A stretch of 16,998 nt of DNA from Candidatus Brocadiia bacterium (GTDB lineage: Bacteria; Planctomycetota; Brocadiia; SM23-32): the NCBI GenBank assembly GCA_046538485.1, contig JBKHIT010000080.1:1-16998 (forward strand), written 5' to 3'. The notes below the pieces were generated by a model. It did not search any database. It was not told the DNA's origin and worked only from the letters and a program-made list of their open reading frames with translations. How positions within the stretch are numbered: position 1 is the first letter of the stretch; each line of letters begins with the position of its first letter. The position numbers were made by a program, and so were the translations under genes. This document shows, piece after piece, positions 14,845 through 16,998 of this stretch.

Positions 14845-15987
14845 TCAGTATTTACCGTATGTTCGGGCTGTTTCAACCATCGCGCGGAGATTTTCGTCTG
14901 GCGTATCACGCCCACATTGATCGCCAGTTGAGAGAATAAATCCACCGCCTTCTGCAGCATCATTGATGGCTTTTCTGCTCGCTTCCACCACGTCGTCGAC
15001 CAAACCTTCAAGCATCGTGCGGGTGGTGTGGAGATTGCCTTTAAGCACAATTTTATCGCCGTAAAGTTCTTTAAGCTCGGCAAGATTGCAATCTCCCATG
15101 GGGGGTTGTTCAAGGGGATCAATCACGGTCAAGTCTGTTTCTTCGGCAAAGATTCGAACGAGTTCTTTCTCCGGTCCGCAGGAATGAACGTGCGTCGGTA
15201 TCCCGGCCTCAGTGGCGAGTTCGATAACACGTTTTGCGCCGGGCAGTGCGATCTTGCGAAAAATCTCAACGGTTTGAAAGATAAGGCTTCCTGAACCACC
15301 GACGCAAAGAAAATCGGGCTTTTCTTCAAGCGACATGAGGTATTCAAACCGTCGTTCACCTTGCCGAATCCTTTCTTCGGCGAGGTGTTCGTATTTCTGC
15401 GGGTTGTCGTGGTAGTCGTAGATTGCTTCGGGGTTGTTCAGAACACATGAATTGAGCACGAAAACGCCGATCAGACCCTGATTGCCCATGAGGTCTTTGA
15501 CACGTTTCAGGGCTTCGGGCCCGCATTCAACCGGTTTGAGCCCTTCAAGAGGCTCGTACTCTGTCGGTTCGTCCGGCAAACCTACCTTTTCAACGGGCAA
15601 ACCGTAAGTCGGTGGGTCGGACCGGTAATAAACATCGACATTCGGTGCCCAGAGGCGTTCTCCGTTTTCAATTCGGCTTCGGCGAGTTATGATGCGGTCG
15701 TCAGTTCGCCGGACGATGAACCGTTCCCATGGCGGATCTTCGGATTCGGTCCCGCCGGGGGACGGATACCGGAACGGGAAGTAACCATCCATCAGCGAGT
15801 CCACGTCGAAATGTTTGGCGCAGTCGATGTAGGCTTCCCAGATGGGCGGGTCGTTATAGAGATACAGATCCCAGAACGGTTTTCCAGTGAGCCGAGCGGG
15901 GATCATATTCGATGTGTCCGGCATTACCGGAACACAGTCCGGGAGCTCTCCGTTCAGAACGGCCAGCAATCTTTCACGTGATGTCAT
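14845..15987 (-). CDS. Uroporphyrinogen decarboxylase (URO-D) / MtaA-CmuA methyltransferase family protein, 380 aa
   Basis: N-terminal MTSRERLLAVLNGELPDCVPV, plus HVHSCG, LKGNL and GGGFILSTGDQC...ENL.AM. The HxC...C Zn motif is present. Not a canonical HemE. Confidence 0.85.
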   Translation of the reverse strand: MTSRERLLAVLNGELPDCVPVMPDTSNMIPARLTGKPFWDLYLYNDPPIWEAYIDCAKHFDVDSLMDGYFPFRYPSPGGTESEDPPWERFIVRRTDDRIITRRSRIENGERLWAPNVDVYYRSDPPTYGLPVEKVGLPDEPTEYEPLEGLKPVECGPEALKRVKDLMGNQGLIGVFVLNSCVLNNPEAIYDYHDNPQKYEHLAEERIRQGERRFEYLMSLEEKPDFLCVGGSGSLIFQTVEIFRKIALPGAKRVIELATEAGIPTHVHSCGPEKELVRIFAEETDLTVIDPLEQPPMGDCNLAELKELYGDKIVLKGNLHTTRTMLEGLVDDVVEASRKAINDAAEGGGFILSTGDQCGRDTPDENLRAMVETARTYGKY

Positions 15988-16551: not shown

Positions 16552-16662
16552 AGGCTGCACTGTCCGCGTTCTGAACTCCAGCCTCCGGCTGAAGTCCAGT
16601 CCGCTCATGCTCTGCAGCCTCGAGTTCAGCTGAGCGGTAGCGAAGCGGGACTTGAGGCGGAC
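16552..16662. repeat. Palindromic doublet repeat (full module A plus module B)
   Basis: 16564-16606 is identical to 1484-1526. 16619-16662 matches 1330-1383 with a shorter inner stem. Module A is enclosed by AGGCTGCA(16552-16559)/TGCAGCCT(16613-16620). Confidence 0.85.
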
Positions 16663-16827
16663 GATTAGGGGGGTATGGACCACCAAGGGCACGGGATTCG
16701 GGACTGGCTGCTCCGGCACCGTCTTTTCGAAAGTTCTCGCGTTGAGACGGTTTCGGAGTTTTTGGGCCCCCTGTCCCATCCGCGAAAGCCATACGGAAAA
16801 AAGACGTACCTGTGATCGATATTCGAA

Positions 16828-16870
16828 TCGCAAATCTTTGCTCCAGGAAGTATAATACAGCAAAGCGCTT
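16828..16870 (+). promoter_or_regulatory. Candidate sigma70 promoter plus LacI-type operator for the prepilin-like gene
   Basis: TCGCAA(16828-16833)-17 bp-TATAAT(16851-16856). Palindrome AAGCGCTT (16863-16870) lies at the expected +1 region. Confidence 0.55.
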
Positions 16871-16898
16871 CCGTCGTGTATGATCACCGGGAGGATAT

Positions 16899-16947
16899 AT
16901 GAGGGAGATCAATTCATCGGGCAACAGGGGTTTCACATTGATCGAGC
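16899..16947 (+). CDS. 5' part (exon 1) of a prepilin-type N-terminal cleavage/methylation protein gene, interrupted
   Basis: GGAGG (16890-16894), then ATG AGG GAG ATC AAT TCA TCG GGC AAC AGG GGT TTC ACA TTG ATC GAG C = MREINSSGNRGFTLIE plus the first base of a possible Leu codon. The expected hydrophobic helix is missing, and read-through stops at TAA 16959-16961. Confidence 0.75.
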
Positions 16948-16998
16948 GTGTGCCCAGTTAAGGCTGGGTAAACTTGTTGGGTGTAAGTCCCAATCGTA
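16948..16998 (+). mobile_element. Probable 5' end of a group II intron (runs off the window)
   Basis: Begins GTGTG (GUGYG consensus) plus CCC exactly at the break. It contains the hairpin TTGGG-TGTAAGT-CCCAA (16977-16993), the GGG-UGNRA-GU-CCC motif of proximal domain I. Only 51 nt are visible. Confidence 0.65.

Follow-up and report, generated by a model that had tools for sequence, protein, structure and literature searches.

We analyzed the right end of contig JBKHIT010000080.1 of Candidatus Brocadiia bacterium (Planctomycetota; assembly GCA_046538485.1), a stretch of 16,998 nt that we refer to below as the window, and found that an open reading frame (ORF) for a prepilin-like leader is interrupted there by the start of a group II intron. 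Our favoured explanation, in which we place high confidence, is that the window carries a member of a mobile group II intron lineage that is specialised to the prepilin-leader motif, guided by exon-binding site 1 (EBS1), and equipped with an in-frame copy of the leader codons in domain VI (D6) and the 3′ tail. This explanation is based on the insertion site, the anatomy of the intron, covariation of the EBS1 loop with its target, tails encoding GFTLIE, head-to-tail tandems and the existence of one intron lineage at this site in other DNA. From these sequences we infer retrohoming by EBS1-guided reverse splicing and a tail that may act as a rebuilt homing site.

In the window, the leader begins at the ATG at 16899 with the codons M R E I N S S G N R G F T L I E. 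The exon 1 ORF (16899-16947) reads MREINSSGNRGFTLIE followed by a C, and is then interrupted by GTGTGCCC... at 16948-16998. The GFTLIE codons occupy 16929-16946 and the C at 16947 is the first base of the expected Leu codon, with the insertion lying 16 codons into the ORF, following the Glu codon of the leader motif. The sequence immediately after this C begins GTGTGCCCAG..., and the intron part, GTGTGCCCAGTTAAGGCTGGGTAAACTTGTTGGGTGTAAGTCCCAATCGTA, continues up to the window end. Its first five bases (16948-16952) are GTGTG, in agreement with the GUGYG 5′ end of group II introns, as in all eight copies in the genome. The leader frame ends inside the intron at a TAA (16959-16961). The window holds the first half of the N_methyl motif (GFTLIE), and the intron splits this domain. 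A sequence-only reading of this DNA had described a class III signal leader broken after GAG-C, which these positions bear out; it had also described a promoter, which was not supported, as a sigma-70 consensus scan of 16600-16998 returned no sites and the TATAAT hexamer was recognised by eye alone. The features at this end of the window are as follows.

16851..16856, plus strand: TATAAT hexamer, a possible, unconfirmed -10 box (by eye; sigma-70 consensus scan negative)
16889..16894, plus strand: Shine-Dalgarno-like GGGAGG, 4 nt before the ATG; a similar GGAGG precedes other leaders in the genome
16899..16947, plus strand: exon 1, prepilin-like leader MREINSSGNRGFTLIE plus the first Leu base C, from the ORF reading
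16941..16947, plus strand: putative intron-binding site 1 (IBS1), AUCGAGC (Ile and Glu codons plus first Leu base), pairing with the loop GUUCGAU, from loop covariation
16948..16998, plus strand: opening 51 nt of a group II intron, with 5′ GUGUG and the start of domain I, truncated at the contig end, from identity to other copies
16959..16961, plus strand: TAA in frame with the leader, 12 nt into the intron (ORF 16899..16961)

The window is an entire contig (C56 of genome G000 in our labelling) that ends 51 nt into a repeat. An Rfam search of the window at the gathering threshold gave no matches because just 51 nt of intron are present. The contig is not directly extendable, and the checks proposed in the sequence-only reading were run on paralogous copies. 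On contig C44 we identified a complete copy, an element of 2,067 nt (minus strand, 128384-126318). It encodes a 424-amino-acid reverse transcriptase (RT) with RVT_1 (142.7 bits) and GIIM (43.3 bits) domains, which contains FADD and matches TIGR04416, "group II intron RT/maturase", at 415 bits (cut-off 300); a Pfam search of this RT returned RVT_1 and GIIM only, with no endonuclease domain found. Domains V and VI (D5/D6) score 33.6 bits on RF00029 (gathering score 40), and the intron ends in AC (...CUAAUAGUAC). In-silico removal of the intron joins GFTLIE-T to TG-CTG-GTG..., giving a continuous leader-helix reading LLVVIAII, and the exon 2 body comprises 202 amino acids with a weak DUF1559 match (16.6 bits). 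An RT/maturase ORF, D5/D6 with an AY end and resumption of the pilin frame had been proposed as checks of the intron, and the C44 copy has all of them. A minimum free energy fold of the first 673 nt of this intron was uninformative for domain assignment.

We further examined the distribution of copies in the genome. The junction pattern TTYACNYTNATHGARYGTGYG occurs eight times, compared with no occurrence of a reversed-pattern control, which exceeds chance expectation. All eight copies with a 5′ end start one base past the Glu codon of (G/A)FTLIE, and every leader peptide is different. The copies on C54, C38, C49 and C42 lie at contig tips and are 100% identical to the window over 42-51 nt. 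Copy C20a is internal to its contig and 100% identical over 51 nt, C20b lies at a contig tip and is 96% identical, and the C44 copy is internal and 80-84% identical; C120 is a fragment without a 5′ end. The reading into the intron is RVPS* in six copies and CVPS* in C20a. At contig tips, the length of intron and the number of exon bases common to another copy always sum to 55, indicating that the tips are de Bruijn repeat breaks (k = 55) and not biological ends. In C20a, GGGTGTAAGTCCC aligns to the start of Rfam RF02003 (group-II-D1D4-4), and domain I scores 39.2 bits on this model (gathering score 49). As a control, we inspected five 5′ ends of other group II introns in the genome (C79, C117, C55, C113 and C104), which begin GTGCGCC... 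or GTGTGCC...; none of the five is at an FTLIE site. Tabulation of the 5′ flanks, together with the C44 anatomy and the EBS1 loop described below, thus supports the earlier claim of a group II intron inside the GFTLIE-L motif. Other group II copies were noted at C79:8830-9526, C113:35210-36753, C117:270-440, C55:735-899, C104:2235-2397 and C99:8606-9908, and on C65 and C10.

These features also decide against a different origin of the repeat, as the end of an insertion sequence, a miniature inverted-repeat transposable element or another repeat beside pilin genes. Short repeats are very abundant in the genome, and the majority of contig tips mark repeat breaks, but the 5′ GUGUG, the Rfam matches to domain I and domains V/VI, the RT/maturase ORF, a bulged A, the 3′ AC, the exact frame-restoring boundaries and the covarying EBS1 loop refute this origin, which we rejected and to which we attach practically no probability.

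Beyond this genome, a survey of 131 other genomes in the class found the junction pattern in one only, G024, which shares the family but not the genus; there, a ~340-nt domain I fragment with the GUUCGA loop is located at an FTLIE site (1/1). A pattern based on the intron 5′ end only matched a single locus in genome contigs, the G024 copy, and nothing in metagenome contigs. Across 400 other genomes of the phylum, the junction pattern matched once (G323), a match judged to be chance and rejected, leaving no credible copy. When the pattern was used with GGN, 36 metagenome contigs matched and 13 were judged to be introns; visual inspection assigned the other 23 to ordinary proteins (e.g., CheY-like GFTFIERAR or pilins with GFTLIECVV), and these were set aside. 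The metagenomic set was thus found with a site-containing pattern, the exceptions being two extra junctions outside it (after MPFTLVE-C in L084 and MKKPFTLIE-C in L066), the tails and G024. Twelve of the 13 metagenomic introns have an Rfam match to domain I and/or domains V/VI, and nine matches reach the gathering scores: seven to RF00029 at 40.6-46.2 bits (gathering 40) and two to RF02003, at 51.9 bits (L066) and 51.5 bits (L067).

The metagenomic introns include a full-length form of ~2.1 kb (L061) and ORF-less forms of ~925 nt (L051), ~840 nt (L062) and ~880 nt (L084). Seven junctions are head-to-tail tandems, in which the "leader" is the domain V/VI of an upstream intron; neighbouring introns differ in sequence in L084 and L081, which rules out assembly loops as the source of the tandems. 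Each of the 12 metagenomic tails has the ending GGN/GCG-TTY-(A/T)CT-YTA-ATH-GAA-C, and wherever an exon 2 comes next this ending is in frame with LL(V)VV.... In a phylogenetic tree of RTs, the nine from FTLIE-site introns, including C44, form one clade (support 100/99) relative to 17 further group II RTs, taken from this genome and from related ones; six FTLIE loci without an RT ORF of at least 200 amino acids and 12 of 29 other loci without an ORF of at least 300 amino acids were omitted. The RTs of the clade are 44-61% identical to that of C44, suggesting that the lineage is old. A search of 60 relatives returned full-length RTs that are at most 46% identical to the C44 RT, and which are thus RTs of other lineages. 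One specialised intron lineage therefore occupies the FTLIE site, with diverged members in unrelated metagenome contigs.

To recognise its site, the intron would rely on a domain I hairpin loop, GUUCGA(U), located at intron positions ~279-306 in C44, C20a and G024 and as far as ~375 in some relatives. This loop can pair over 6-7 bp with AUYGARY, which consists of the Ile and Glu codons plus the first Leu base, and G-U wobble covers each synonymous position in the pairing. The GUUCGA(U) loop accompanies AUYGARY exons in eight lineages. Covarying variants occur in L062, with loop GCUCGA and exon end UCGAGC, and in L061 and L082, with loop GUUCUA(U) and exons AUAGAAY; the stems closing the loop also covary. 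An EBS1 complementary to the target, here (A)UCGAGC, was thus found as the sequence-only reading had anticipated.

A total of 133 uninterrupted FTLIE-LLVV sites remain in the genome, and the base corresponding to the start of exon 2 is T at every one of them. AUYGARY is present at all eight occupied sites versus 87 of the 133 empty sites, and these 87 pair fully with the loop, in keeping with the earlier suggestion that an element homing to this motif would have many targets per genome. ATA is the sole Ile codon that mismatches the G of the EBS1 loop. It accounts for 40 of 128 Ile codons (31%) at the target position of empty sites, against 15.4% over the whole genome and 58 of 507 Ile codons within the ten residues that follow in these genes (binomial p = 7e-6, which is overstated as paralogs are not independent). 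Among the tails, six of seven with ATC are followed by another intron, compared with one of seven with ATA (Fisher p = 0.03; rows not independent). The ATA excess and the difference between tandem tails are suggestive, and statistics across paralogs and related introns overstate their significance. Terminal tails that mismatch their own EBS1 are those of the window's type, L051, L062, L084b, L081b and L061.

We then turned to the 3′ ends. The contig tips C99, C118, C138, C140 and C143 share an identical 48-54-nt start that is homologous to the C44 domain VI. These five tails end TAATAGAAC|T (...GGCTTCACTCTAATAGAAC|) and lead into five different pilin-like bodies of 232-305 amino acids. Relative to C44, the D6 stem carries compensated changes (GGAGGAAGCC/GGCUUCCUUC against GGGUGAAGCC/GGCUUCACUC). 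Homology to C44, agreement in numbers and k-mer reasoning make it probable that these tails and the six 5′ tips come from the same elements. In the exon 2 frame, the window-type intron closes with the 37 nt ATG CGC CTC TGG CGG AGA GGC TTC ACT CTA ATA GAA C, which translate to M R L W R R G F T L I E (MRLWRRGFTLIE). All five ORFs starting at the tail ATG match Pfam N_methyl (PF07963) as complete domains (~34 bits, cut-off 21.2). For DUF1559 (PF07596, cut-off 23.3), the bodies on C118, C138 and C140 score 28.4, 23.2 and 20.7 bits, and those on C99 and C143 have no match.

In 13 of 14 tail types, codons for G/A-F-T/S-L-I-E share the frame of exon 2; C44 is the exception, as it reads ...RRGFLLIV and has no start codon. 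RNAalifold of eight tails predicted D5 and a long D6, the 3′ strand of which consists of the GFTLIE codons, with a bulged A 7 nt from the 3′ end. Compensatory changes were present in 12 of the 29 pairs of D5 and D6, and the third base of the Ile codon (A or C) covaries with its D6 partner (U or G). As a side observation, the exon 2 frame at C44 is open for 82 codons upstream of the 3′ splice site (L010:2708-3565, minus strand), a stretch that crosses D5/D6 and, in a different frame, overlaps the RT ORF end; an open frame between D5 and the junction is also found in most metagenomic tails.

According to the favoured explanation, the intron would retrohome into the DNA for the class III signal, or N-methylation motif, of prepilin-like (DUF1559-type) genes, with the insertion splitting the Leu codon after G-F-T-L-I-E precisely between its first and second bases. 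Pairing of the GUUCGA(U) loop with AUYGARY, with wobble absorbing the synonymous third positions, would make many paralogs enterable, and the genome would harbor a single copy of the C44 type, with an RT, alongside several nearly identical ones of the window's type. D6 and the 3′ tail would be built from an in-frame copy of the G-F-T-L-I-E codons, to which the window's type adds an upstream ATG. Two routes may then lead to the same mature protein, one by splicing, which retains the original leader, and one by internal initiation on the intron-borne leader, with the leader presumably removed at G|F on either route. At the 3′ junction the tail would also recreate a site resembling the target, in agreement with the observed tandem arrays. 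The sequence-only reading held that expression of such genes becomes splicing-dependent; this may be wrong, given an intron 3′ end that carries an in-frame ATG and GFTLIE leader.

A further step would be to regard the lineage as a "silent insertion" device, in which D6 doubles as the coding sequence of a replacement leader (start codon, basic residues and G|FTLIE) joined in frame to exon 2, the homing site is rebuilt, ATA or ATC gates reinsertion, the 31% ATA at empty sites represents a counter-adaptation of the host gene family and the 63-nt in-frame inserts described below are scars of such introns. Because the leader is cleaved off at G|F, the mature protein would be unchanged even without splicing. 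We offer this proposal tentatively, as the balance of likelihood is somewhat against it.

To characterize the interior of the window-type intron, we aligned contigs of four DNA runs from microbial mat metagenomes to the C44 intron at a likeness of 80%. X1 is the likely source run; in it, contigs identical to C44 have a depth of 24-34. A diverged contig with a depth of 119 joins L010 positions 3410 and 4656, skipping 1,245 nt with 68 other letters between; it omits nearly the whole RT ORF and retains D1-D3, the start of D4 and D5/D6. The deletion seen in C20a and C120 (3754 to 5067) has a depth of 56. Although contig depth is not copy number, the order of depths fits one RT-bearing copy and several ORF-less copies. 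The window's type is thus probably an ORF-less intron of ~0.9 kb, which would depend on the C44 maturase in trans, the RNAs being ~80-84% identical.

Four "double leader" genes, three on C73 and one on C19 (C19:4070), carry a 63-nt in-frame insert exactly at the intron site. Each insert ends in ...ATCGAAT or ...ATAGAAT, brings an ATG or GTG of its own and contains a 9-bp D6-like hairpin in which F-T-L is encoded by the 3′ strand. They are possibly intron scars (5′ stub plus D6) or miniature derivatives. D6-like hairpins upstream of 128 intact leaders showed no excess over a reversed-strand control (11 vs 5 with 9-of-10 pairings and 0 vs 1 with 10-of-10, in what is a limited test), suggesting that scars are not general. 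Orphan leaders were also noted on C7 (rc 84043), C20 (83221 and 82297) and C112 (39535), each with a Shine-Dalgarno sequence, an ATG and ...GFTLIE+C, running into unrelated sequence and not into a hydrophobic helix; rearrangements between intron copies could have produced them.

Several observations weigh against the favoured explanation, and the first group concerns the tail. Only the window's type and L061, two of 14 tail types, have an ATG near the GFTLIE codons; in another five an ATG lies inside domain V, and the rest have only GTG or TTG. The C44 tail has lost its coding sense (GFLLIV) and yet its D6 is still paired, implying that RNA structure alone can maintain most of the mimic. Both translation from the tail ATG and splicing in vivo are predictions from sequence. 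Targeting may thus be as described with the GFTLIE tail never translated and the expression of interrupted genes wholly splicing-dependent, an alternative that we consider nearly as probable as not. The tail would then be an RNA or DNA device or a by-product, such as a rebuilt homing site, an exon alignment aid or a relic of the origin of the lineage. Its codons form the 3′ strand of the D6 helix, include the branch A and the covarying Ile third position, and are constrained beyond coding need, being always ACT or TCT, YTA and GAA. However, apart from C44, changes among tails are synonymous or keep allowed residues (G/A at -1, T/S), basic residues precede the G as in real leaders, and other group II lineages in the genome lack such a tail, so D6 does not need one. 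Seven tandem junctions were found and introns come mostly after ATC tails, as a homing-site role would have it, and tandem group II integration is known experimentally (PMC12584367). A coding role is favoured by the two independent tail types that gained an ATG at leader distance, by an AAGGGGG 7 nt upstream of the L061 ATG, and by the five tail-initiated ORFs that score as complete N_methyl domains.

The second group concerns the copies and their recognition. The lineage is rare in assembled genomes, with the single positive among 131 genomes of the class and no credible one among 400 of the phylum. EBS2 and EBS3, sought by eye, were not identified, and the D5/D6 of C44 and the domain I of C20a score below Rfam gathering thresholds. 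C20a has an internal deletion (C44 positions 324-1630) and an altered D5 without an Rfam match, with no LLVV body following; C120 begins at intron position 164 beside another repeat and lacks D5; and G024 is reduced to its domain I fragment. The window's own copy is readable for 51 nt only, with its interior, 3′ end and partner body deduced from other contigs, and the six 5′ tips cannot be paired with the five 3′ tails, including the partner of C56. With the orphan leaders on C7, C20 and C112, these copies raise the alternative that the window copy is a dead remnant, either a 5′ fragment or an internally deleted form, and that the MREINSSGNRGFTLIE leader is an orphan pseudogene stub. We regard this as unlikely: the 51 nt are 100% identical to five other copies, five identical 3′ tails are joined to intact 232-305-amino-acid bodies at tips that follow the k = 55 logic of one repeat family, and the variant retaining D1-D3 and D5/D6 has the highest contig depth in the likely source run. 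Furthermore, the leader retains its Shine-Dalgarno sequence and ATG, and the 211 nt upstream of it (16680-16890) are unique in the genome.

The favoured explanation can be compared with known systems. According to Gomes et al. 2025 (PMC12584367), coding genes are not where most bacterial group II introns are found, and a lineage of subgroup IIB1 occupies housekeeping genes at their start or stop codons (e.g., Avi.groEL and EcKTE56.groEL); the first G of the groEL intron turns UAA into UAG with the stop codon regenerated, and the groEL-type intron integrates in tandem in experiments. Both lineages are monophyletic and tied to one kind of position in protein-coding genes, integrate in tandem, and leave the host frame usable without splicing, which in our case is a predicted property. 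The insertion site here is internal to the leader and not at or next to an initiation or termination codon. The target is a coding motif of more than 130 paralogs instead of the start or stop codon of a single housekeeping gene, the intron brings a whole leader of at least 12 codons within D6 instead of one base, and a codon-level footprint is seen at the target.

The present introns resemble IIC introns in that the C44 RT has RVT_1 and GIIM only and in having many target sites per genome. The solved RTs nearest to that of C44 are 7uim (4e-61), which we take to be a IIC intron RT, and the GsI-IIC RT 6ar1 (9e-58), followed by 6me0 (9e-49) and LtrA (2e-42). The ORF-less forms here, of 0.84-0.93 kb, differ from IIC introns, as minimal IIC ribozymes are smaller. 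IIC introns recognise a DNA hairpin and a short pairing (PMC12584367); the junction of tail and exon 2 (D6 hairpin followed by IBS1) resembles such a target, whereas the EBS1-IBS1 pairing here is 6-7 bp, the IBS1 is 6-7 nt and not very short, and the targets are coding leaders in which no conserved hairpin was detected (128 intact sites, limited test). Assignment to IIC would therefore be tentative at most, since the nearest RTs are IIC-type but neither the long EBS1 pairing nor the size of the RNA matches that class.

A Clostridium tetani intron described by McNeil and Zimmerly in 2014 reportedly resides in surface-layer protein genes, where alternative splice sites give isoforms. It resembles our case in that a group II intron shapes which terminus a surface protein gets, and differs in that a single splice site is present here and an alternative N-terminus would come from a translation start inside the intron. 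Another parallel is Trichodesmium dnaN/RIR, where several ORF-less introns accompany one related ORF-bearing intron whose RT is possibly a general maturase (summarised in PMC12584367). In both cases ORF-less introns in coding genes occur beside one ORF-bearing relative, although here the ORF-less copies occupy one homologous site in different members of one gene family. In our literature search, with subscription papers outside its scope, no publication connected group II introns to genes of the prepilin, pilin, pseudopilin or DUF1559 kind.

Rather than avoiding coding genes, the lineage appears to use a short RNA guide that tolerates wobble, by which it enters a gene family of more than 130 members per genome at its most conserved codons. 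It would be a natural case of one retroelement facing many near-identical coding targets and, through ATC/ATT versus ATA, a natural experiment on EBS1/IBS1 specificity. A ribozyme helix may here also serve as coding sequence for a functional signal peptide. For annotation, this intron can cause contig breaks and "orphan" leaders or bodies in metagenome-assembled genomes of the Planctomycetes-Verrucomicrobia-Chlamydiae type, and gene callers will start interrupted genes at the intron-borne ATG.

Finally, we noted minor features around these loci. A 380-amino-acid ORF (14845-15987, minus strand) lies upstream of the leader locus in the window, as does a ~100-nt repeat at 16564-16662 (also at 1484-1526), which has 196 blastn matches over 74 contigs with a median identity of 90%. 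One copy of this repeat lies downstream of the C44 pilin-like gene, where a sub-threshold Rfam match to Acido-Lenti-1 RNA was also seen (L010:2215-2279, minus strand; 30.2 bits, gathering 37). Positions 1-104 of the window are another repeat, with 36 blastn matches in 32 contigs, often at contig tips; with the intron at the right end, both ends of the window contig are thus repeat breaks.

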